A stretch of 64,000 nt of DNA, taken from contig OZ241375.1 of assembly GCA_965200625.1 (NCBI GenBank), positions 2,226,699 through 2,290,698 on the forward strand. The letters are read 5' to 3'. Each line of letters starts with the position of its first letter. Within the stretch, counting starts at the first letter, position 1. Under the pieces are notes generated by a model, which worked only from the letters and a program-made list of their open reading frames with translations, searched no databases and was not told the DNA's origin. Shown here one piece after another: positions 1 through 30,967 of the stretch. Source of the DNA: Dehalococcoidia bacterium (GTDB lineage Bacteria > Chloroflexota > Dehalococcoidia > Bin125). Made by a program: the position numbers and the translations under genes.

Positions 1-2821
1 TGTGCGCGCAGCTCGGCGAGCTGAGCGCGGATGCCTGCCTCGCTCAGGGCCGGAGAGAGGGCGGGCAGCTGATCGACGCGCAGGGCAATCACTGACAGCA
101 GGAGCTCGTGCAGCTCATCCGCCGTGCGGATCGGAGGAAAAGCCTCTTCCTGGACGCGGATGATGGCGTCGAGGTCGAGCTTGCCCAGGTCGCGCTGCTC
201 GTTGGGCAGAGTGCGGCGGGTCATCACGGCGCGGGTGCGGCGTTCCTCCAGCGGCGCGTCGTCGAGGAAGCCGAAGGGATTGACGTTGATGATGCTCTGC
301 GCCAGCCCCGACGGCGTGACGGTGTCGCGCGCGTGCAGGCGAATCTCGCCCCGTTCAATCCGTTCCAGCACCTCGATCAGGCCGTCCGTGTCGACCGCCT
401 CGTGCAGGCAGTCGTCCATGGTCTGGGCGATCAGCGGGTGGTCGGGCACCTCGAGCGGGCCGGCGAGATTCTCCTGGCAGCCGACCTGCGCGGGGAAGAC
501 GGCGGCGAGTAGGTCGTCGGCGATCATCCGCTGGAGATAAGGCGGCACTTCCCGCCCGCCGCGACGGCGCGGGACGGCCAGCGCGCGGGTCGCGGCCCAG
601 CGCCAGCGCGTGTTCCAGAACGGCGCGTAGAGCACCGCCTGGCGCAGCGACTGCTCGGCGTTGGCGGCAGACAGGTAGCCGAACGCCTCCTCGAGCGGGA
701 AGGACTGCGAGGGTCCGAGCGAGAGAATGACGCCTTCCTCGTTGGCGGCGGCCTGAAGTTCGAAGTCGAAGCGCACGCAGAAGCGCTTGCGCAGCGCCAG
801 TCCCCAGGCGCGGTTGACGCCCGAGCCGAACGGGGCGTGGACGACCAGCTGCTGACCGCCGCCCTCGTCGAAGAAGCGCTCAAAGACGACATCGGTGTCG
901 GAGGGCATCACCTGGAGCGCGTCCTGCGCTTCGCTCAGGTACTCGACGATCTGCTCGGCGGCGGCGGCCGGCATGTGGCACTCGCGCTGAAGTTGGCGGA
1001 CGGCGGACTCGGTGTCCTGGGCCAGGCGGCCGACGTCGCGGCGCAGCTCGCCGACCGCCTGCGAGAGTTCCATGCTGCGCCCGGGCGCCTCGCCGAGCCA
1101 GAAGGGGATCGTCGGCGGCGCGCCGTGCGCGTCCTCGACGCGGACGATGCCCTTGTTCTCGACGCGGCGGATTTTCCATGAGGTGCTGCCCAGCAAAAAA
1201 ATGTCGCCGGCGGCGGTCTCGATCGCGAAGTCCTCGTTGACCGTGCCGATGAACGCGCCTTCGGGTTCCTTGATCACGCGGTAGTCGCCGGTCTCGGGGA
1301 TCGTGCCGCCGTTGAGGATGGCGGTCATCCGCGCGGCGCGGCGCGGCTTCACCCGACCGTTGATGCGGTCGCGGTGGATCAGCGGCTGCGAGCGGCCGCC
1401 GCCCTCGCCGACGCCGGTGGCGAGCATCTCCAGGGTTTCCTCGAAGGCGTCGCGCTCCAGGTCGGCGTAGGGCGCGGCGCGGCGCATGACCTGGTAGAGA
1501 TCGTCCTCGCGCCAGTCTTCCTCGGACGCCGCCTCGGCGACGATCTGTTGGGCGAGCACTTCGATCGGCGCGGCGGGCTGGCAGATGCGGTCGAGCTGGC
1601 CGCGCTCGACGGCGCGGACCATGGCCGCGCATTCGACCAGCTCGTCCAGCGAGGTGGGAAAGAGCGCACCGTGCGGGACGCGGCCGAGCGCGTGGCCGGA
1701 GCGGCCGACGCGCTGGAGGAAGGTGGCAATGCGGCGCGGCGAGCCGAGTTGGCAGACGAGATCGACGGAGCCGATGTCGATGCCCAGTTCGAGCGAGGCG
1801 GTAGCGACGACCGCCTTGAGATCGCCCGACTTGAGCCGCTGCTCCATGACGTGGCGGCGCTCTTTGGAGAGCGAGCCGTGGTGTCCGGAGACGTGCTCCT
1901 TGCCGACGCGCTGGCCGAGTTCGTGCGCGACCCGCTCGGCCAGCGAACGGCGGTTGACGAAGATCAGCGTGGTGCGGTGCTGGAGGATGAGTTCCGCCAA
2001 CCGGTCATAGACCGCGGCCCAGTGTTCGTGCGTGGCGAGCGCCTGCAGGGGCGCGTCGGTGGTCTCGATCCAGAGCGTGAGCTCGCGTCGGTGGCCGAGG
2101 TCGAGGATGCGGCAGGGCAGCGGCTGCGCCGATTCGTCCAGGCCGGTCAGGAAGGCGGCGATCTCGGTCATCGGCTTCTGCGTGGCGGAAAGGCCGATGC
2201 GGGTCGGGCGTTGATCGGCGACATGGTCGAGGCGGGCCAGGGTGAGCGCGAGGTGCGAGCCGCGCTTGTCGCGCACGACGGCGTGGATTTCATCGAGGAT
2301 GACCGTGCGCACGGTGCGCAGGATTTCGCGCGACTGCTTCGCGGTCAGCATCAGGTAGAGCGATTCGGGCGTGGTGATCAGGATCTGCGGCGGCCGCTTG
2401 ACGATCGCGCGCCGCTCGGCCTGGGTGGCGTCGCCGGTGCGCAGCCCCATGCGGATGCGGGGCAGCTCGACGCCGCGCTCCTGAGCGCGCTGGCGGATTT
2501 CCGTCAGCGGCTCCTCGAGGTTGCGACGGATGTCGTTGGAGAGCGCCTTGAGCGGCGAGATGTAGAGGATGCGCACCTCATCGGGCAGCGCGCCGCCCGC
2601 CGCCTCGCCCTCGCGGATGAGATCATCAATGCCGGCGAGGAAGGCGGTCAGCGTCTTGCCCGAGCCGGTCGGCGCGGCGATCAGGCAATCTTCCCCCGAC
2701 CGAATCGCCGGCCAGCCGTTCGCCTGGGCAAAGGTGGGCGCGCCAAAGCGCTCCCGAAACCAGCCCCGCACCATCGGGTGGAAGTCTCCCAACACCCCAT
2801 CAGCAGTCAACGTCTGGATCA
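1..2821 (-). CDS. lhr: ATP-dependent helicase Lhr (DEAD/DEAH-box helicase with DEAD/H-associated domain). It is partial: the C-terminus lies beyond the window start.
   Basis: Hand translation of the minus strand from ATG at 2821 gives MIQTLTADGVLGDFHPMVRGWFRERFGAPTFAQANGWPAIRSGEDCLIAAPTGSGKTLTAF... The Walker A motif (AAPTGSGKT), DEIH box, SAT motif and downstream PFGSGVNRAWGLALRKRF (Lhr-type associated domain) are all present. There is no stop before position 1, which explains why it is absent from the ORF track. The long + strand ORFs here (108..512, 1374..2942) are antisense artefacts. Confidence 0.8.
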
Positions 2822-2885
2822 TATGTTCAACACCATATCTGGTCTACGCGGTTTCTGCACCATCCACGCCGCGGTCGTCGGCCAA

Positions 2886-4370
2886 TTACCCTGTTTTGTT
2901 TCGCGGTTCAGCCACCATTCGTGCCGCCGGGGATCTGCATAGGCGATCGCAATCCGTTGCTCGAACGGATGAAGCTCGCCAAACTCTCCCGAATCGATCG
3001 TCGCTCCCCGAACGCGTTCCGGATCCAGACGGTAAGCGCAGTGACGAGCCCACAGACGTACCGGGGGGGCAGGAGTCGCTCCGTGCCAGTCCCAGCAGCT
3101 GTTTGGCCAATAGGCCCCGTAGTGCGCTGGGGGGAGGTTCCTTTGACTTCGAAATCGCGCGAAGCAGGCACGTCACTTGCTCAGAGCTGGCCGGACCCTC
3201 ATTGACCAAATCTAACGCCTGACCGATCACCTTGATGACTTGTTCAGGCGATGCGTACTTGTCGAGGAATCTTGAAGCCCTGACGCAGGAACATTCCCAT
3301 AGGTCCGGGTACTTCAGCATCCGATCGACGATCAGCTCTGGCAACGATCCTTCTTCTGGCGTTTGGAGTACTGCGCGATACAGACGGTTGAGGCGGGATT
3401 TGTCCGGTTGTGCGCCCATGAGTTCCTCATAGAGCATTATCCAGAGCGACATGGTGTCCTTGTTCTTGACTACGAAGTTGATGTCGCCTTGGGAGACGGT
3501 GGCGCCTAATAGGAGTTCGCTGCCGGATTGCCCGCTTTGCCACGAACGAATCGTCTTCTCCTCCGATGAGACAAGCCCGACGGAACGCAGGTATTGCGTT
3601 CTCTGTGACTGGGCGTGCTCGACTAGTGTGGGCACGCCATCAACCAAAAATTCGTCATCGCTCCAGCGAAGAGAGGAGAGCCCGGGAATCCCCTCAAGAA
3701 TCCTGTCCAACTGATAGAGCACTTGATTGGCGAGCCAACTGGACGCCTCTGCGGTGATCGGCAGGCCCTTGACGCCGGAGTCGATCTGAACACGTTCGAG
3801 CAACATGCGAAGCCCGAAAGCAAGGTCTTGGCCTATCACAGGCGAGAGCGTTTCCTAGATAATGTACGGACCCACCGATGGGTAAAAGCGCTTGATGTCT
3901 GTCTTGAGGACTGCACTTGGCTCAGTCTGCGCGAGTTGCGAGATTTCTCGTCGCCAAGCGCCGAAAGCAGGCCCAAATGGCTCGGTTGTCAGGACGGAAA
4001 TGCTGCTGCCTCGCGGGTTGGTAAGTCTCATGCGGCCAGCAAAACTCCTGGGATGTTGACGATCAACCAACGCGTCCGCACCTTCATGCAGCAGTAAGCG
4101 TGTGGCCAGCTGTGCTGGCCAAGACATCAGAACCATCTCGCGACAGGATCGGTCGTCTTTTCGCGCACCGTATGGGACGCCGACCGGGTTTGCCAGATAT
4201 TGCCGCTCGATCAGCTGGGTCAGTGGCTGCTGCTTCGGTGCGTGGCTGAGCAGCCAGTGAACGTCGGCGAACTCGATCGGGTCAGGCATAGAGACTTCTG
4301 GAGAACACAGGTGAGCGCGCAGTTCCCGCAGGTTGGCAAGAGCAGCGTCCCGATTGGAATGGATGAGCAC
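2886..4370 (-). pseudogene. Reverse-transcriptase-like gene with RT motifs 1-6, interrupted by a single in-frame TAG at 3855-3857. Catalytic motifs are degenerate and there is a ~200 aa C-terminal extension.
   Basis: ORFs 3855..4370 and 2886..3839 are in the same frame, separated by a TAG plus 5 codons. Upstream part: VPYGARKDDRSCREMVLMSW...RLLL (motif 1-like) and TDIKRFYPSV (motif 2, cf. DLKxFFPSI). Downstream part: KGLPITAEASSWLANQVLYQLD (motifs 3/4, with QG replaced by IT), LRWSDDEFLV (YxDD box reading WSDD) and GLVSSEEKTIRSW (motif 6, GLxxNxxKT). GC is ~55% against a ~70% background. Both ORFs use GTG starts. Confidence 0.6.
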
Positions 4371-4534
4371 GGTAGACCTCCGTTTCAGCGGGGAGCAGTG
4401 GACAGACCGTCGATCCGACTCTAGCAGGCAGATTGATCAATAGATTAGACAAGTTCTCATTTCTACGATCGTTGTGGGCACTGTGGACGCGGATACACTG
4501 TCTAGCGGCAGCAGAAGCCGCTCAGGAGACGCCC

Positions 4535-5845
4535 ATGACCCCTCAAATCAGCTGGCAGCCCGTCTTTGATGAGGCGCTGGACTACTTTGTCAACTATCTG
4601 CAGATCGACACCTCGAATCCGCCGGGGAATGAGAAGCCGGCGGCTCGGTGGTTGGGGCAGATTCTGTCGGCGGCGGGGATGGAGGTGGAGTATGTCGAGA
4701 TTCAGCCGGAGCGCGAGGCGGTCTTTGCCTGGCTGCGCGGGGACGGCTCGAAGCGGGCGATGATGCTATGCAACCACACCGATGTCGTGCCGGTCGAGGA
4801 GGACTACTGGACGAAGCCAGCCTTCGAGGGCTACATCGAGGACGGCAAGGTCTACGGGCGCGGCGCGGTCGACATGAAGGGCTGCGGGATCATGCATCTG
4901 ATGACGATGCTGCTGCTCAAGCGCAACGCCGTCCCGCTCAAGCGCGACCTCGTCTTCTGCGGGGTGCCCGATGAGGAGGCGGGCTCGGTCTGGGGAATGG
5001 AGTGGCTGTGCAAGAATCGGCCCGATCTGGTGGATGTGGAGTTTGAGCTCTCGGAGGGCGGCTCGGGCTCGACGCAGTTGATGGGCGAGGAAGCGAGCAT
5101 CTTCTCGGTGGCGACCAACGAGAAGGACATCTGCTGGCTGAAGTTGACGTCGGTGGGGACGCCGGGGCACGGCTCGCGGCCGCACTACGACAACTCGGCG
5201 GTGCATCTGGTCAACGCGCTCTCGAAGCTGGCGGCGTGGGAGCGACCGGTGACGATCACGCCCTCGACGCAGGTCTGGCTGGATCGGCTGATCGAGGAGG
5301 GCCACATTCCCCCCGTACAGGACGCGGAGGAGCTGACCGCGTACGTGATCGATCATCCCGCGACGCACGCGATGTTCATCAACACGCTCAACGTGACGAT
5401 GATCAACAGCGGGATCAAGGCCAACGTGATTCCCGCCAAGTCGGAGGCCACCATCGATTGCCGCCTGCTGCCCGGTCAGGATCGCGAGGACTGGCGCCAG
5501 CAGGTGATGTCGGTGATCGACGACGATCGCATCGAGGTGGAATTCTCAGGCTGGGATCAGGAGCAGCCGGTCGAGGTCGATTGGGATACGGAGTTGTACC
5601 GCACCATCGAAGCGGTGGTTAACGAAGCGGTCGAGGATGCGACAGTCGTGCCGTCCACCTGCGTCGGCGGGACGGATAACCGGTTCCTCCGGCAGCAGGG
5701 AATTCCCGCCTACGGCTTCATCCCCGTGCTGCTCAGCCCCGAGGAAGCCGCCGGCTTCCACGGCAACGACGAGCACATGACCATCGAAAACCTCAACATG
5801 GGAGTCGAACTGACCTACGAGATCGTGCGTCGGATGGTGACGTAG
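4535..5845 (+). CDS. M20 family metallopeptidase (ArgE/DapE/CPG2-like).
   Basis: DTSNPPGNE, HTDVVP, GRGAVDMKG and GGTDNRFL motifs typical of peptidase M20 with a dimerisation domain. The ORF track begins at 4433, but an RBS (GGAG) precedes ATG 4535 and 4433-4534 is AT-richer, non-coding-like sequence. Confidence 0.85.
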   Translation: MTPQISWQPVFDEALDYFVNYLQIDTSNPPGNEKPAARWLGQILSAAGMEVEYVEIQPEREAVFAWLRGDGSKRAMMLCNHTDVVPVEEDYWTKPAFEGYIEDGKVYGRGAVDMKGCGIMHLMTMLLLKRNAVPLKRDLVFCGVPDEEAGSVWGMEWLCKNRPDLVDVEFELSEGGSGSTQLMGEEASIFSVATNEKDICWLKLTSVGTPGHGSRPHYDNSAVHLVNALSKLAAWERPVTITPSTQVWLDRLIEEGHIPPVQDAEELTAYVIDHPATHAMFINTLNVTMINSGIKANVIPAKSEATIDCRLLPGQDREDWRQQVMSVIDDDRIEVEFSGWDQEQPVEVDWDTELYRTIEAVVNEAVEDATVVPSTCVGGTDNRFLRQQGIPAYGFIPVLLSPEEAAGFHGNDEHMTIENLNMGVELTYEIVRRMVT

Positions 5846-5856
5846 GACTCGCCTAC

Positions 5857-5888
5857 CGTCGTTTCTGCTTTCGCAGGAACGACGGAGA
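5857..5888. terminator. Strong GC-rich stem-loop (cgtcgtttctgc / gcaggaacgacg) between convergent genes. It is a candidate bidirectional terminator with no U-tract.
   Basis: Near-perfect 12-bp inverted repeat with a 4-nt loop immediately after the M20 peptidase stop (5845) and downstream of the minus-strand gene ending at 5919. Confidence 0.4.
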
Positions 5889-5918
5889 TGGGGAAGCTGC
5901 CGGCTGGAGCGATCGGGG

Positions 5919-6590
5919 TTACTGGAGTTTGGAGTAGGGGAGGGGGTTGAGGAAGTAGATTTCTTCTTCTGGGGCGTGTTCGCGGAGGGAGCCGATGATG
6001 TCGGCCAGGGGGTCGCCGGGGCGGTAGATGGTCATGGCGTCCGTGCCCTGGGGCAGGATCCAGAGGTCGGTGAGTTCGCCGCTGCGGCCGATGCTGGAGG
6101 CGTAGGCGGTGACGAGCTGCATCGCGCCGGCGCCTTCGAGCGTGTCAACGAGGCCGCCGATCGCCTCGATGGCGGGGGGCAGACCGCCGGTGACGGTCTG
6201 GAGGACGGCGAGCAGGTACTGGCGCGGCTGGTCGGGGTTGGCGTCCAATGCTGCCTGCAGCCGCTCCTCGGTGCCGTACGAGACGCGGTTGGCGAACTTG
6301 GTGACCTCTTCGATCTCGATCTCGCCGCGCAGCTTCTCGACCGCCGCCCAGAGCGCTTTGTCCTGTCCCAGCGAGGCCAGGCACTCCTCGGCGTGCGCCA
6401 TGCTCTCGTAGCGGTGGATGGAGAGATCCCAGCCCATCTGCCCGCCGGTCATCTTCCAGGCGCCGATCAGGTCGATGCCGTGCCGCTCCGTGGCCGGCAC
6501 GACGGTCTCGGCGTAGAAGTCGACGAACAGGTCGAAAGCGGTGTTGGTGATTGGCTTGATGCGGTGTCGGACTTCGAGGAGGACGGCCAT
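5919..6590 (-). CDS. NIPSNAP-family protein (two tandem NIPSNAP-like domains), function unknown.
   Basis: 223 aa ORF with balanced composition and two ~100 aa repeats. The family assignment is from memory of NIPSNAP features. Confidence 0.5.
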   Translation of the reverse strand: MAVLLEVRHRIKPITNTAFDLFVDFYAETVVPATERHGIDLIGAWKMTGGQMGWDLSIHRYESMAHAEECLASLGQDKALWAAVEKLRGEIEIEEVTKFANRVSYGTEERLQAALDANPDQPRQYLLAVLQTVTGGLPPAIEAIGGLVDTLEGAGAMQLVTAYASSIGRSGELTDLWILPQGTDAMTIYRPGDPLADIIGSLREHAPEEEIYFLNPLPYSKLQ

Positions 6591-6652
6591 GATCTGCTCC
6601 GGGGCGTGTTCGGTTCGTTGCAGGTTAGAGGTTGGGCGCTACAGGTTGGGGG

Positions 6653-7555
6653 CTACAGGTGAGGGGCGAGGGCGGTGATGAACTCGCGGGTGCGGCGGCG
6701 TTCGTCGGCGTTGACGCCGGCGAAGGCGGCGTAGAAGTCGGTCACGCCGATCTCCCGCCAACGCAGCAGCTCGCGCTCGACTTCCTCCTCGCTGCCGACG
6801 ATCGCTACGCCGCCCGGGTCGTCCGCGCCCGAGCCCTGGATGACGCGCTGGTAGGACGGCAGGGTGTTGTACATGGCGAAGGCTTGGGCGATGCGCTCGC
6901 GGGCGGCGTCCGGGTCGGCGGTGACGGCGACGGGCACGCCGGCGATGATGCGCGGGTCGGGCTTGCCGGCCTCGCGCGCCGCGCCGCCCAGCTCGGGGAT
7001 CACCACGTCCTCGATCCACTGCGGTCCGGCCAGCCAGAGGGCGGTGCCGTCGGCGAGGCGGCCGGTGACGCGCAGCATCTGCGGGCCGAGCGCGGCGACG
7101 ATGACCGACGGCGGCTCGGCGTCGGGCAGGTCAACCTGCGAGTGGACCTGGAACTCCTCGCCGTCGTAGTGCACAACTTCTCCGCGCAAGAGCGGCTGGA
7201 GCACTTCCAAGTACTCGCGCATGTGCCGCACGACCTTCGTGAAGTCGAGCCCCCAGGAGTCGCGGATCACGACTTCGTGCGAGAGTCCGAGTCCGAGTGT
7301 AAAGCGTCCGCCGGCGGCGGCGTTGACGGCGAGCGCCTGCTGCGCCATCGCCACGGGATGGCGGGTGTAGGTCGGAATCACGTAGGTGCCCAACTCGATC
7401 GTGGTGGTGGTCTCGGCGGCGAGGGCGAGCACGGTCATCGCGTCGTGGCCGACCGAGGGCAGGAAAGCGCCGGCGAAACCGACGGTTTCGAGTTGGCGGA
7501 TGGCTTCGATCTTGCCGGCGAGCGTGGCGCCGTCGGGCGGGGCGAGGATGCGCAT
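6653..7555 (-). CDS. LLM-class (luciferase-like) F420-dependent oxidoreductase.
   Basis: MRILAPPDGATLAGKIEAIRQLETVGFAGAFLPSVGHDAMTVLALAA...GLGLSH matches the TIM-barrel luciferase-like monooxygenase family (F420-dependent subgroup). Confidence 0.8.
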   Translation of the reverse strand: MRILAPPDGATLAGKIEAIRQLETVGFAGAFLPSVGHDAMTVLALAAETTTTIELGTYVIPTYTRHPVAMAQQALAVNAAAGGRFTLGLGLSHEVVIRDSWGLDFTKVVRHMREYLEVLQPLLRGEVVHYDGEEFQVHSQVDLPDAEPPSVIVAALGPQMLRVTGRLADGTALWLAGPQWIEDVVIPELGGAAREAGKPDPRIIAGVPVAVTADPDAARERIAQAFAMYNTLPSYQRVIQGSGADDPGGVAIVGSEEEVERELLRWREIGVTDFYAAFAGVNADERRRTREFITALAPHL

Positions 7556-9579: not shown

Positions 9580-11403
9580 TTGTTCAGCGCCTGGTTCGCG
9601 TACTTCATTGGACGCTGGGAGGGGTACAACCTCCAGAAGCTGCGCGGGGACATCTTCGGCGGGGTGACTTCCGGAGTCGTCGCGCTGCCGGTCTCGCTGG
9701 CGTTGGGCGTGGCCGCAGTCTCGACCGCGGGCGGCGATGTTGGCCAGGGCGCGCTGGCCGGTCTGTACGGGGCGATCGCGGTCGGCGTCTGCGCCGCGTT
9801 GTTCGGCGGGACGCCGGCGCAGGTCTCCGGGCCGACGCCGCCGATGGCAATCGCGATGGCCGTGGTGGTCGCGCAGAAGGGGCTGGAAGAGGCCTTCGCG
9901 GTCGTCCTGCTGGCCGGGCTGTTCCAGATCGCGTTTGGCGTGCTGCGGGTCGGGCGGTTCATTTCGTACACGCCCTATTCGGTGATTTCGGGATTTATGT
10001 CGGGCATCGGCATGATCATCATCGTGATCCAGCTGCTGCCGTTCTTCGGCTTCCCCGTCCAGGCGGGACGGCTGACGGCGTCGCTGGAAGCGCTGCCCGA
10101 CGCGATTCGGGAACTCAACATTGACGCCTTCGGCGTGGCGCTGTTCACGCTGGGTCTGGTCGTGTTCTGGCCGCGCCGCTTCCGCGGCGTGATCCCGCCG
10201 ACGCTGGCGGCGCTGGTGCTGGGCACCGGCCTGAGCCTGCTCTGGCTGGACGGCGCGCCCACCATCGGCGACATTCCGACCGGTTTCCCCTCGCTTCAGT
10301 GGCCGGACTGGTCGCTTGACTTCGTGCTCGCGGTGATCGAGCCCGCGTTCATCATCGCGCTGCTGGGTTCAATCGACAGTCTGCTCACGTCGCTCGTGGC
10401 GGATTCGCTGACGCGCACGACGCACCGGCCGAATCGCGAGCTGTTCGGCCAGGGTCTGGGCAACACGCTCTCGGGCCTGATCGGCGGGCTGCCGGGCGCG
10501 GGGATGACGCTGACGACGGTGGTCAACGTCCGCGCCGGCGGCCGGACGCCGCTGGCGGGCATTCTGGTCGCGGTCGTGCTGCTGGCGCTGGCGATGGGCG
10601 GCGGCGCGATTGCGGAACCGATTCCCCACGCCGTGCTGGCCGGCATCCTGCTCAAAGTCGGCTGGGACATCATCGACTGGCGCTTCCTGCGCCGCATCCG
10701 CGACATTCAGGGCTCGCACCTGCTGGTCATGTTCATGACGGTGGTGCTGACGATGTTCGTCGATCTGGTCACGGCGGTAGCGATTGGCCTGATCGCGGCC
10801 GGGATGGCGAATGCGCTCCGCTCGGAACGGTTCGAGCTGGACAACGTGCTCTCGGTGCCGCTGCTCGACCTGAGCGGCGACGATCCGTACTCGGCGCGGA
10901 CGGGCCTGCTGGCGCTGCGCGGCCGCTTCTCGGTCGCCTCATCAAGCGCCCTGGTGCGGGCGATCACGCCCGACATCCAGGAGCACGAAGTGGTGATCTT
11001 CGACTTCTCGCGGACGACAGCGCTCGATGACAGCGCGGCGATGGTGATCAAGGATCTGGTCGAAGGCGCGACGGAGCAGGGCACGCAGAGCATTGCGATG
11101 GGTCTGGAACAGACGCCGTCGGTCGAGTCGGCGTTGGACTCGTTGGGCGCGCTCGACGACATCCCGCCGGAGCGGCGGGTCGAGACGCTGGTCGAAGCGC
11201 GCGAGTTGGCGGATGCGCTGCTCGCCGAGCGGGACGCGGCGGAGGCGGCGCAGGCGGCAGAGGCGGCACTCGAGACCGAGGCGGAAGCGACCGAGGCGGA
11301 AGCGACCGAGGCGGAAGCGACCGAGTCCGACGAGGCCGTTGAGGGTGACGAGGGCGAAGCAGAGGCAGAGGCGTCGGAGGAGTCGAGCAGCGCCAACAGC
11401 TAG
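9580..11403 (+). CDS. SulP-family anion transporter with a C-terminal STAS domain and an acidic EAEAT repeat tail.
   Basis: N-terminal LRGDIFGGVTSGVVALPVSLALG and multiple TM segments typical of SulP. STAS-like region VVIFDFSRTTALDDSAAMV. TTG start at 9580 with a GGGAGAAG RBS. The C-terminal (EAEAT)3 is encoded by a 15-bp x3 tandem repeat at ~11278-11325. Confidence 0.85.
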   Translation: MFSAWFAYFIGRWEGYNLQKLRGDIFGGVTSGVVALPVSLALGVAAVSTAGGDVGQGALAGLYGAIAVGVCAALFGGTPAQVSGPTPPMAIAMAVVVAQKGLEEAFAVVLLAGLFQIAFGVLRVGRFISYTPYSVISGFMSGIGMIIIVIQLLPFFGFPVQAGRLTASLEALPDAIRELNIDAFGVALFTLGLVVFWPRRFRGVIPPTLAALVLGTGLSLLWLDGAPTIGDIPTGFPSLQWPDWSLDFVLAVIEPAFIIALLGSIDSLLTSLVADSLTRTTHRPNRELFGQGLGNTLSGLIGGLPGAGMTLTTVVNVRAGGRTPLAGILVAVVLLALAMGGGAIAEPIPHAVLAGILLKVGWDIIDWRFLRRIRDIQGSHLLVMFMTVVLTMFVDLVTAVAIGLIAAGMANALRSERFELDNVLSVPLLDLSGDDPYSARTGLLALRGRFSVASSSALVRAITPDIQEHEVVIFDFSRTTALDDSAAMVIKDLVEGATEQGTQSIAMGLEQTPSVESALDSLGALDDIPPERRVETLVEARELADALLAERDAAEAAQAAEAALETEAEATEAEATEAEATESDEAVEGDEGEAEAEASEESSSANS

Positions 11404-26426: not shown

Positions 26427-26780
26427 CTAGCCGGTTCTCCGGATCCGAATTCGATTGCGAGTAACGACGATGATGCACCGTTCTTCGATCTCCGTTGGAT
26501 AATGTTCCAGAAGCTCACGCATGGCTTCGACCTTTTCATTGACCGTCATGTTGGTAAAGCGAATGATGCCGGAGTGTGGCAGGCGGCGAACGAACACGAG
26601 CTCGCCGAAGTCCTTGTCTTCTGTGATGATGACTCGCTGATTCGCTTGGGCGAACTCCAGCAGCTCTGCGTCGGTCGCCCGCGGGTCGAGCTCGAGGGCT
26701 GAGAGCAGGTCATGTCCGTGGGACCGCAACGCCAACTGCAGGCTCCGTGAGGAGGCGCAGACGTCAAGCAAGAATCTCAC
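26427..26780 (-). CDS. DUF5615 (PIN-like / Mut7-C-like) putative toxin.
   Basis: MRFLLDVCAS...VIITEDKDFGELVF is typical of DUF5615. It overlaps the upstream DUF433 gene by 4 nt (ATGA). Local GC is reduced. Confidence 0.7.
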   Translation of the reverse strand: MRFLLDVCASSRSLQLALRSHGHDLLSALELDPRATDAELLEFAQANQRVIITEDKDFGELVFVRRLPHSGIIRFTNMTVNEKVEAMRELLEHYPTEIEERCIIVVTRNRIRIRRTG

Positions 26781-27028
26781 TGCCGACTGGTGAGCACGCG
26801 GTCGTGGATGTCCTCACCGGCGATAGAGCGATGCGCGAACAAAAGGCAGGCCTGGATGTCTGCGGATTCGAGGAACGGGTACTCGCTCAGGATCGTCTCC
26901 GTCGAGTCACCCGCTGCAAGCATGGCGAGCACGTGTTCCACAGCGATCCGCAGCCCGCGGATGATCGGCTTGCCGCCGAACACGTCGGGGCGGACGACGA
27001 TGCGGTCAAGCAACTCCGCTTCTGGCAT
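26777..27028 (-). CDS. DUF433 putative antitoxin.
   Basis: MPEAELLDRIVVRPDVFGGKPIIRGLRIAVEHVLAMLAAGDSTETILSEYPFLESADIQACLLFAH is the canonical DUF433 sequence. The ORF-track start at 27331 is upstream Arg-rich junk; the ATG at 27028 fits. Confidence 0.7.
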   Translation of the reverse strand: MPEAELLDRIVVRPDVFGGKPIIRGLRIAVEHVLAMLAAGDSTETILSEYPFLESADIQACLLFAHRSIAGEDIHDRVLTSRQ

Positions 27029-27048
27029 AGCTGCTGCCTGCTTCGCGC

Positions 27049-28056
27049 CTAGCCCTTGAGCGCTTCGAGGATGTTGGCGAACTCGTTGGGGTCGCTTTCC
27101 ATTACGTTGACGCTGTGCAGCAGGGCGCCGGCGGCCTGCTCCCGCTCGAGGCGCTCGACGCACTCCTCGGTCGTGCCGACGAAGCCGAACTGCTCCAGCA
27201 TCTCGCCGGGGATCGACTGCGCCGCCGCGCCGCCGCCGCCTTCCTTCCAGGCGAGGCGGGCGGCGTTGGCCTCGTCCTCGTAGCCCTGGCGCGAGAGCTG
27301 GCGGTAGTAGAACTCGCCCATCCGCGCGCAATAGAAGGCGAGCGTGCCGGCCTGCCCGGCGCGGGCGCGGGCCTGCGCCTCGGGCGTGTTGGCGACCGTG
27401 ACCCCGCCCGGCGCGCGGACGGTGAAGTCGGCCGGGTCCTTGCCCGCCTCACGCACCCAGTCGTTGACCTGCTCGATTTCCTCTTGCAGGCGGTCAATGG
27501 GGATCATGATCGGTAGCCAGCCTTCGGAGATTTCGGCGGTCATCTTGACCGACTTGGGGTTCAGGGTGGCCAGATAGATCGGCAGCTGCTTGCGGTAGGG
27601 CTCGAAGCGGAGGGTGAAGCCGCGCTGCAGCTTGAACAGCTCGCCGTCGTAGCGGAGCGGTTCGTGCGAGAAGAGGATCTTCATGATCTCGACGGTCTCG
27701 CGCATCCGCTTGAAGGCGGGCTGGAAGGGGACGCCGTGGAAGTGCTCGATCACCTGCGGCCCGGAGTTGCCCAGCCCGACGATCACGCGGCCTTCGGAGA
27801 TATCGTCGATGGTGGCGAAGTGCTGCGCCAGCGCGGCGGGCGTGCGCGAGTAGATGTTGACGATGCCGGTCGCGACCTGGACATTCTGCGTGCGCTCGGC
27901 GAGCTGGACGAGAGTGGTGAAGGCGTCCTGGCCCCAGGCCTCGGCGACCCAGAGCGAGTCGATGCCGACTTCGTCCGCGATCTGCGCGCGCTGCAGCGCA
28001 GTCTCGCGGTTCATCGATCCCTGCCAGTCAAATCCCATGCCAATGCGTCGGCTCAT
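27049..28056 (-). CDS. LLM-class F420-dependent oxidoreductase.
   Basis: GMGFDWQGS...IDSLWVAEAWGQDAFTTL...GLGNSGPQV pattern of F420-dependent luciferase-like oxidoreductases. Confidence 0.8.
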   Translation of the reverse strand: MSRRIGMGFDWQGSMNRETALQRAQIADEVGIDSLWVAEAWGQDAFTTLVQLAERTQNVQVATGIVNIYSRTPAALAQHFATIDDISEGRVIVGLGNSGPQVIEHFHGVPFQPAFKRMRETVEIMKILFSHEPLRYDGELFKLQRGFTLRFEPYRKQLPIYLATLNPKSVKMTAEISEGWLPIMIPIDRLQEEIEQVNDWVREAGKDPADFTVRAPGGVTVANTPEAQARARAGQAGTLAFYCARMGEFYYRQLSRQGYEDEANAARLAWKEGGGGAAAQSIPGEMLEQFGFVGTTEECVERLEREQAAGALLHSVNVMESDPNEFANILEALKG

Positions 28057-30107: not shown

Positions 30108-30967
30108 TCAGGACTCACCGTCTTGGACGCGCATCCGCGCATACAGGACCTGCGGGGTATGATCATCTCCTACGGTACGCAGCTCAAAGATGTCCTGTCT
30201 GGACTTGACCATCCGAGAGAGCTGCGTGAATCCGTAAGAGCGAGGGTCAAAGGCCGGATTCGTTGCGCGCAGGGCGTTTCCAACGTCAGCGAGGTTCGCC
30301 CAGTCGTCGTGCTGGCCCAGAGTGTGTTCGATCGCGCGCTTCACCTGAGCAGGCCAATCGTGCCACGTATCCTCGGCGTCGGAAGTTCTCCACTCGCCAG
30401 ACTTCCAGTCAACACGTGGTTTGTCGGTAGCAAGTTCATTAACCAACGGCTTGTCAGGTGGATCGCCTTCGCCGGTATCATCATCAGTAGTGGAGTTCCG
30501 GACGGAACTCCCAAGTTCTCGGTATGCACGAACCGCTCGCACGCATGCTGGAACGCCTGAGGAGTGTTGCTTCTGCCGATACCCATCACGAACATCCCCT
30601 GTTCGCGGATCCTGATCGCTAGAGGAGTGAAGTCGCTGTCGCTGGAGATGATGCAGAACCCGTCTACGTCGCCGGCGTGGAGTAAGTCCATGGCGTCAAT
30701 GATCATTCCAATGTCGGTCGCATTCTTGCCGGAGGTATAACTGGTCTGATGTATCGGTTGGACCCCGTGCCCGTGCAGCACTTGTCGTTTCCACTGAGAC
30801 ATGTTCGAGCTCGCCCAATCGCCGTAGACACGGCGGATGATGACGTTCCCGTACTTGGTCGTCTCGGCCAGCATCTCCGCAAGCAGCGACGGTTGGGCGT
30901 TGTCGCCGTCGATCAGCATCGCGAGCCGCTTTGCTCTTGCTGGTTCTTCCGGCATTCCCGGCTCCAT
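30108..30967 (-). pseudogene. NYN-domain / OST-HTH (LOTUS) protein split by a frameshift into two overlapping ORFs.
   Basis: ORF 30341..30967 carries a NYN (LabA-like) domain: LAMLIDGDNAQ...DIGMIIDAMDL...FCIISSDSDFTPLAIRIREQGMFVMGIG...ACERFVHTENL. ORF 30108..30542, in a different frame, carries an OST-HTH-like WANLADVGNALRATNPAFDPRSYGFTQLSRMVKSRQDIFEL. In intact genes the two domains are fused. GC is ~55%. Confidence 0.6.

Follow-up and report, generated by a model that had tools for sequence, protein, structure and literature searches.

The subject of this analysis is a window of 64,000 nt from a Dehalococcoidia bacterium (GCA_965200625.1, contig OZ241375.1, positions 2,226,699-2,290,698, forward strand), and within it a reverse transcriptase (RT)-like gene on the minus strand between lhr, which encodes an Lhr-type helicase, and an M20 peptidase gene. 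With a probability of roughly 70%, we read this gene as a recently inactivated copy of a single-gene RT-like polymerase from a small, uncatalogued group within or beside the class 1 UG/Abi defence RTs. An earlier note, made from the sequence alone, had proposed an RT-like open reading frame (ORF) at this position, with a TAG at 3855-3857 and a series of RT motifs; analysis of the ORFs and their translations bore out the ORF, on the minus strand, and its TAG, and the motifs were found where they had been placed. The broken gene comprises the following features:

2819-4370, minus strand: the whole RT-like pseudogene, ~516 aa if the TAG is taken as a sense codon and one C is dropped from a run of seven (from translation and a five-homologue alignment)
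3855-4370, minus strand: N-terminal fragment ORF of 171 aa, with N-terminal helices, fingers, and motif A, stopping at the TAG
3855-3857, minus strand: lesion 1, the premature TAG, where homologues have Glu, Gly, or Ala (alignment column VVxETL)
3063-3069, minus strand: lesion 2, a +1 frameshift in C7 (G7 on the plus strand), where homologues read SC[I/V]PVR and the window reads SCPP+1VR
2819-3062, minus strand: last part of the C-terminal alpha-helical repeat domain, not read in frame in this copy; the corrected frame keeps VRxWAR...TIDSGEF...HxFEQR...WPTTA.W

The ORF starts at a GTG at 4370 with GGAGG six bases before it, and after the TAG its frame reopens and runs on to 2886, which had been taken as the end of a gene split by a single in-frame stop. 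A search of 5.8 billion clusters returned five full-length homologues (480-534 aa, 36-56% identity), against which the last ~60 residues of the ORF ending at 2886 are unrelated and out of frame, so that this end is an artefact. The RT orthologue of locus L001 aligned by tblastn as two high-scoring segment pairs (HSPs), in frame -3 and then in frame -1, joined at 3063/3064, and deletion of one C restored '...SCPPVRLWARHCAYRLDPERVRGATIDSGEFGELHPFEQRIAIAYADPRRHEWWLNRETKQGNWPTTAAW...', with all the C-terminal residues that do not vary among the intact proteins. Because the restored frame stops at a TGA at 2819-2821, overlapping the lhr ATG at 2820-2822 (ATGA), the gene ends at 2819 and carries two disabling lesions, the frameshift lying ~790 nt downstream of the TAG; the proposed stop codon therefore stands, whereas its standing as the only lesion does not. 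The simplest change that would account for the TAG is GAG to TAG. Since the TAG parts motif A from motifs B-E, neither fragment is expected to be active, and the frameshift would take away the end of the alpha-helical repeat (alpha-Rep) domain.

An identical 171-aa product has already been called as a protein (P0019), and it is also encoded by a separate 4.2-kb, 2x-coverage long-read contig (L009, ERZ25068762), which has both the TAG and the C7 run and differs from window positions 2740-6898 by 0 substitutions over 4.16 kb and by four single-base homopolymer insertions. Across ~12 kb, seven neighbouring genes are free of frameshifts and stops. We take the TAG to be real and the frameshift to be probably real as well. 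The alternative that survives best, still an unlikely one, is that the gene is intact in the organism and encodes a functional RT, the TAG and the extra C being errors of long-read sequencing or assembly: C7 is the only G/C run of at least 7 within the 64 kb, the related L009 has homopolymer insertions of the kind typical of long-read error, and the corrected frame keeps all the invariant C-terminal residues with a ratio of nonsynonymous to synonymous substitution rates (dN/dS) like that of intact pairs. However, the TAG is a substitution rather than an indel and is the same in two contigs without a mismatch between them; each of the L009 errors adds one base to a short run of 2-3 bases, and none of them occurs in the window, whose consensus looks polished; the neighbouring genes are in frame, with an A7 run in lhr and several 6-mers among them; and two lesions in 1.55 kb contrast with none in the 12 kb of neighbours. 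Of the two lesions, it is chiefly the one in the homopolymer that could be an assembly error.

If the lesions are real, the sequence indicates a recent inactivation, because nearly all residues that are invariant in intact homologues are retained and dN/dS resembles that of intact pairs. Among the five pairs for which dS was computable, dN/dS was 0.11-0.14 in the three that pair the window copy with intact relatives, and 0.10 and 0.22 in the two intact pairs; judged by these sequence comparisons, purifying selection appears to act on the intact alleles. The window RT would accordingly be a recently inactivated copy and the system dead in this genome, so the suggestion of a decaying defence RT was apt for this copy.

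The motifs that had been described as degenerate are as follows, with conservation taken from an alignment of 18 family sequences:

3897-3899, minus strand: catalytic Asp158 of motif A (TDIKRFYPS), in the N-terminal fragment
3726-3767, minus strand: motif B, GLPITAEASSWLAN; the family consensus is GLPIGPESSxWLAN, with G, P, and E invariant
3654-3668, minus strand: motif C, RWSDD, which holds the two catalytic Asp residues; RW[S/T/M/L/V/G]DD across the family, with DD invariant and R and W nearly so
3552-3557, minus strand: Lys-Thr of motif D (EEKT), with K298 and T299 (numbering of the intact member P0002) invariant

In P0002 numbering, D184, D264, D265, K298, and T299 are all invariant and motif A is TDIxxFYPS; the window equivalents of the catalytic residues are D158, D238, D239, and K272. 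The canonical YxDD and PQG boxes are not present in any of the 18 sequences, which have RW[S/T/M/L/V/G]DD and GLPI[G/T/S] instead, and in the subclade of the window copy Thr or Ser replaces the Gly of GLPIG. The IG variant of motif B also occurs in DRT6 (GLPIGPDTS) and in the RT of diversity-generating retroelements (DGR; GIPIGS), and DRT6 is an active template-independent polymerase (class 1 UG/Abi mechanism: PMC12783706, PMC13213688), so the canonical PQG does not define activity. By this alignment, the RW[S]DD and GLPI[G/T] motifs are fixed traits of the family with an intact catalytic set, not signs of decay. A catalytically dead domain co-opted for another role, one of the readings offered earlier, was rejected, since the catalytic Asp triad and the motif-D Lys-Thr are invariant across the family and DRT6 shares GLPIGP.

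The significant RT-family match that a profile search of the read-through protein was expected to give was obtained, and the matches point to the UG RTs without settling on one of them. In PADLOC, the window copy matched RT_UG33 (2.7e-12, residues 30-345, 44.4 bits), RT_UG23 (3.5e-12, 43.6 bits), Drt8 (9e-10), and UG36 (2.5e-9), and 17-18 of 20 family members matched UG33, UG23, Drt8, or UG36. Across the 20 members, the best E-values were 1e-17 to 1e-19 for Drt8, UG33, UG34, and UG36 and 1e-16 for UG23; none was a full-length, high-scoring match to UG33 or UG23, for which the best member reached ~1e-18 and 1e-16, respectively. NCBIfam gave weak matches to retron, Drt3a, and group II RTs, and Pfam gave none for the window read-through protein or P0002, while P0014 passed the RVT_1 cut-off (42.6 vs 29.6 bits) and P0006 just reached it. 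A word-indexed protein search with the family profile gave 7 proteins, and the family became visible only when 1.84 billion representatives were searched exhaustively with a hidden Markov model: 16 proteins fell below E = 1e-30, followed by a gap and then by generic RT matches confined to the palm. The only two members in named genomes are from Dehalococcoidia metagenome-assembled genomes, and no source names any of the returned members. The family is very small and, by profile score, lies in no catalogued UG group. Two further proteins are a hint of wider diversity: P0020 (441 aa), a more distant relative at 23% identity, has RWTDDF as well as the 'AEQRW' signature of the C-terminus, and P0023 (326 aa) has the N-terminal region of the family fused behind an unrelated N-terminal segment. 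A retron, group II intron, or DGR element was considered and rejected, since there is no RNA partner (no Rfam match and an unconserved leader) and the RTs of all three match the palm only (residues ~125-275).

The predicted fold carries more of the assignment. An AlphaFold2 model of the intact P0002 (mean predicted local distance difference test score, pLDDT, 90.8; predicted template modelling score, pTM, 0.89) shows helices at the N-terminus, then an RT core, and a wholly helical domain over residues ~300-531; pLDDT is >90 over most of the helical domain and 76-87 at residues 311-350. The window copy encodes the same helical-domain residues once its frame is corrected. The top matches of this model in a Foldseek search of the PDB were UG15/DRT4 (9l9s, 9vdv, 9vdo), DRT6 (9wy8), Abi-P2, AbiA, and AbiK, with full-length alignments of ~460-560 columns and TM-scores of 0.5-0.6. 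An RT followed by an alpha-Rep domain is the class 1 UG/Abi architecture (PMC9226505), and the model accordingly predicts this fold for the family, with RT fingers and palm, no canonical thumb, and a C-terminal alpha-helical repeat domain; the model and the structural matches agree with the helical C-terminal extension, as seen in single-gene Abi/UG defence RTs, that had been recognized from the sequence.

Several points weigh against our reading. PADLOC scores stay low, with no more than ~44 bits for the window copy and ~1e-19 for the best member, and are scattered across many UG models; the class 1 assignment therefore rests mainly on the predicted fold. The defence predictions for UG33 and UG23 are themselves 'inconclusive' (PMC9226505), and the defence role and template-independent synthesis of the present family are suggested by analogy. 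Outside motif A, no Tyr is invariant among the 18 sequences, so a priming residue cannot be named. On the side of the lesions, the frameshift coincides with the window's one long G/C run in assemblies that look long-read from contig naming and error type, so that lesion 2 could yet be a systematic homopolymer error, and L009 may come from the same population or study, in which case the two assemblies would not be fully independent. Finally, P0014 is only ~31% identical and occupies the same site, which means that the slot has been occupied since a deep lineage split, and this occupancy could also fit a long-resident host gene.

The genomic behaviour of the M20-lhr slot is that of a variable hotspot. 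In the window, it is laid out as follows:

1-2822, minus strand: lhr, core flank, intact and continuing past the window edge
4535-5845, plus strand: M20 peptidase gene, core flank, intact and divergent to the RT gene
4371-4534, minus strand: leader and divergent promoter region between the RT and M20 starts, part of the cassette
2829-4563, no strand assigned: extent of the variable cassette, without counterpart in the empty-site L018, which has 126 bp there instead (blastn)

The low-GC islet and the intact flanks described in the earlier note were both confirmed. GC content is 0.55-0.60 over ~2850-4650 vs 0.68-0.73 in the flanks, the RT-like gene itself has 55-58% GC vs a background of ~70%, and the bin 3001-4000 is the lowest in the 64 kb. 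Each flanking gene aligned to its orthologue as one tblastn HSP, lhr with 87% amino acid identity over 962 aa and M20 with 92% over 436 aa, and Pfam identified DEAD, Helicase_C, and WHD_Lhr in the lhr orthologues and Peptidase_M20 in those of the M20 gene.

The same order, with M20 divergent from the RT gene and lhr following it, recurs in L001/L002, L003/L007, L005, L006, and L014, although the L014 RT is only ~31% identical. A JGI metagenome scan with the RT alignment (A4) found no relative, whereas the M20 protein succeeded as a query, and with it as the probe the following states of the site were found:

L017 and L018: empty, ~100 bp between the lhr and M20 starts; M20 93% identical to that of the window
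L019 and L021: empty, 155 bp and 300 bp between the starts
L026: divergent intact RT allele of 507 aa, sharing 33-42% identity with other alleles, between flanks that are 88-89% identical to those of the window
L027, 551-2164, plus strand: fused N6/N4 DNA methylase-HNH nuclease gene (537 aa; Pfam N6_N4_Mtase and HNH) replacing the RT
L014: RT and methylase-HNH together, the latter (9630-10955, minus strand) separating the RT from lhr

Between the window and the empty site of L018, blastn homology ends at 2828 and resumes at 4564; the cassette is thus ~1.7 kb, consists of the RT ORF and its leader, and is bounded by two core-gene start codons. RT alleles in the other occupied genomes are only 35-60% identical. 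The clearest case is that of L001 and L006, both from one sample (ERZ25071132), in which M20 is 99% and NIPSNAP 100% identical in amino acids and the first ~240 nt of lhr (all that L006 has) are 95-100% identical in nucleotides, whereas the RT interval (L001 7900-9620 vs L006 5908-7627) is ~40% identical, with sharp edges; this difference is a strain-level allelic polymorphism of the cassette. GC content at third codon positions (GC3) is 0.46-0.64 in all RT alleles vs 0.82-0.94 in the flanks, and the cassette is compositionally foreign wherever it was found. The cassette was not dated against its flanks by dS, since dS is saturated in most RT pairs and that of the flanks is compressed by high GC3.

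The family also occurs without lhr in two other slots, one between a coenzyme A-transferase III gene and a cyclase gene (L008 9866-11536, L012 8001-9527) and one between a luciferase-like gene and a zinc-dependent alcohol dehydrogenase gene (L016 6536-8119), the latter near NucS and three N6_N4 methylases. With empty sites, divergent alleles, a methylase-HNH gene of restriction-modification-like character in the slot, and the methylase and NucS neighbours of L016, the family behaves in genomes as defence genes do. Horizontal acquisition, which had been suggested from composition and intact flanks, fits the synteny comparison, by which the islet is non-core and exchangeable: close relatives are empty and others have divergent alleles or another gene. 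Recent insertion by an integrase-bearing mobile element was rejected, since the M20-lhr site has no integrase, repeat, or tRNA and the edges of the cassette fall at core-gene start codons; with none of these at the site, the simplest route by which alleles would be swapped is homologous recombination via the conserved flanks.

By analogy with DRT4, DRT6, AbiK, Abi-P2, and AbiA, the intact protein would oligomerise and make protein-primed, template-independent single-stranded DNA (ssDNA), which host nucleases would keep harmless until a phage factor stabilised it; the build-up of ssDNA during infection would then lead to abortive infection (mechanism of class 1 UG/Abi RTs taken from PMC12783706, PMC13213688, and PMC9226505).

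A more ambitious version, which we hold to be unlikely, is that the intact relatives form a previously unrecognised UG/Abi-like group, assigned to date to Dehalococcoidia only, whose fixed RW[S]DD/GLPIGPE site would specify an unusual product (for example a particular homopolymer or repeat, or one involving ribonucleotide use) and whose RT would be coupled with Lhr as a helicase partner that processes or restrains its DNA. The RT in the M20-lhr slot would share a transcript with lhr and be coupled to it in translation, and Lhr, a 3'-5' helicase acting on ssDNA and RNA:DNA hybrids, would restrain the RT product as host exonucleases restrain the ssDNA of DRT4. As a separate observation, the RT stop and lhr start overlap (ATGA) in L001/L002 too, and lhr at empty sites has its own intergenic region of 100-300 bp, so that the promoter region of lhr must have been displaced or replaced when the cassette was inserted; translation of lhr could also be affected by the RT lesions.

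Less probable again is that the RT is a host-domesticated DNA-repair factor working with Lhr, and with the nearby RecQ, in the manner of the G2L4 RT, so that its loss here is the loss of an accessory repair function. G2L4 is a group-II-intron-like RT that acts in double-strand-break repair, and its RT is among the sequence matches (1.2e-9); besides the stop-start overlap with lhr in the window and in L001/L002, the two genes run in the same direction and no terminator-like site separates them, RecQ is found one or two genes past lhr in L001, L003, and L005, and the site has been occupied since a deep divergence (P0014). Close relatives with empty sites nevertheless keep lhr, the RT family stands at two other loci without lhr (L008/L012 and L016), and the same slot accepts a methylase-HNH gene; alleles of 40% identity on near-identical backgrounds and a foreign GC3 are unexpected for a housekeeping partner, and the full-length fold matches are alpha-Rep Abi/DRT enzymes, whereas G2L4 gives a TMq of 0.39.

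Defence genes are often phase-variable, and the homopolymer tract is a plausible slippage site after which C-terminal coding potential is fully kept. A regulatory role of the lesions, in which read-through or recoding of the TAG, or phase variation at the C-tract, lets part of the population make the full-length protein, is nevertheless very improbable, since a single molecule would need both events, the corresponding positions of homologues show no stop and no C-tract (E/G/A and SC[I/V]PVR, respectively), C7 is short for a contingency tract, no stimulatory structure was found, although no search was aimed at one, and a tRNA scan of the window found none, hence no local suppressor or pyrrolysine tRNA and no tRNA(CUA); the sense codons in homologues, the second independent lesion, and the missing tRNA also speak against the stop-codon read-through raised in the earlier note.

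Rfam gave no match over 2500-5000 at E-values up to 1. The leaders of six loci, when aligned, are poorly conserved and show no conserved RNA, with a TTGATCAA-like palindrome in some of them, and the 164-nt leader of the window is not unusually stable when folded (z-score 0.03). A promoter and terminator scan found two weak promoter-like sites, one within the RT ORF and one at its 3' end just upstream of the lhr start, with no promoter-like site in the leader and no terminator-like site. The TTGATCAA palindrome lies at 4433-4440 (minus strand) in the RT leader of the window, with similar sequences at the aligned position in L003 (TTGATCGA) and L005 (CTGATCAC), and it could be an operator or promoter element common to the divergent M20 gene.

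Other low-GC genes were noticed elsewhere. The second-lowest GC bin of the window (58%) is at 30108-30967 (minus strand), where a 208-aa ORF (30341-30967, minus strand), NYN/LabA-like by eye, overlaps in another frame a 144-aa ORF (30108-30542) whose C-terminus is, likewise by eye, OST-HTH/LOTUS-like; the two may be one frameshifted NYN+OST-HTH gene and thus a second low-GC, possibly broken, accessory gene. A dip to 62% GC at 26427-27331 (minus strand) contains two small ORFs side by side, one of 117 aa that looks PIN/DUF5615-like and, upstream of it, one whose C-terminus looks DUF433-like; they look like a candidate toxin-antitoxin pair. In L008, a low-GC patch ~3 kb upstream of its RT has two ORFs that are NYN-domain and NYN+S1-domain-like by eye.

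If our reading is correct, an uncatalogued group joins the UG/Abi defence RTs in the Dehalococcoidia of the Chloroflexota, where such systems are barely described. The site documents a clean one-gene defence hotspot with empty, RT, and methylase-HNH states, and the two 40%-identical RT alleles on near-identical backgrounds in one sample offer a convenient natural system for the study of allele turnover. For annotation, the 'degenerate' motifs are better treated as family traits and the window copy as a two-lesion pseudogene rather than as two hypothetical proteins. As a pseudogene, the copy is nothing unusual; what deserves attention is the polymorphism of the hotspot and the possible coupling with lhr.

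Among known systems, DRT4 (UG15) and DRT6 (UG12) are the closest in structure, each a single ORF of ~500 aa with RT fingers and palm followed by an alpha-helical repeat domain, and they are the best full-length structural matches to the family (TM-score 0.53-0.60; 9l9s, 9vdv, 9vdo, 9wy8). DRT6 shares the GLPIGP motif B with the family, and the family resembles both systems in that its ~160-nt leader showed no RNA structure that was conserved or unusually stable. However, sequence identity is only 11-13% and every UG profile score is weak; motif C reads RW[S]DD in place of Y[V/A]DD; no conserved Tyr was found in the family that would correspond to Tyr125 of DRT4; and the family occupies fixed chromosomal slots in Dehalococcoidia instead of classical defence islands in Proteobacteria.

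UG33 and UG23 are the best PADLOC matches, and the UG33 alignment passes beyond the RT core (residues 30-345 vs model positions 26-309); the C-terminus of UG23 has HEAT-like repeats (Mestre et al. 2022, PMC9226505). Scores of at most 44 bits against models of ~490 positions are nevertheless far below the level of members, the best model varies by family member (Drt8, UG33, UG34, UG36, or UG23), and the NUDIX or SLATT partners of UG23 (PMC9226505) are absent here. AbiK, Abi-P2, and AbiA likewise share the RT and alpha-Rep fold (7r06-7r08, 8oz7), are single-gene systems, and keep the catalytic Asp triad; they differ in that sequence similarity to AbiK is marginal (E 0.04), AbiA has a HEPN domain that the family does not have, a priming Tyr is not identifiable in the family, and the host range is different.

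Lastly, the slot can be compared with defence hotspots at core genes. It differs from these in being a very small islet of one gene, with no integrase, repeats, or tRNA, and in the recurrence of the same RT family in the slot across a deep divergence; it resembles them in its empty/occupied polymorphism with exact edges, its alternative cargo (RT or methylase-HNH), its foreign composition, and the presence of one pseudogenised copy.

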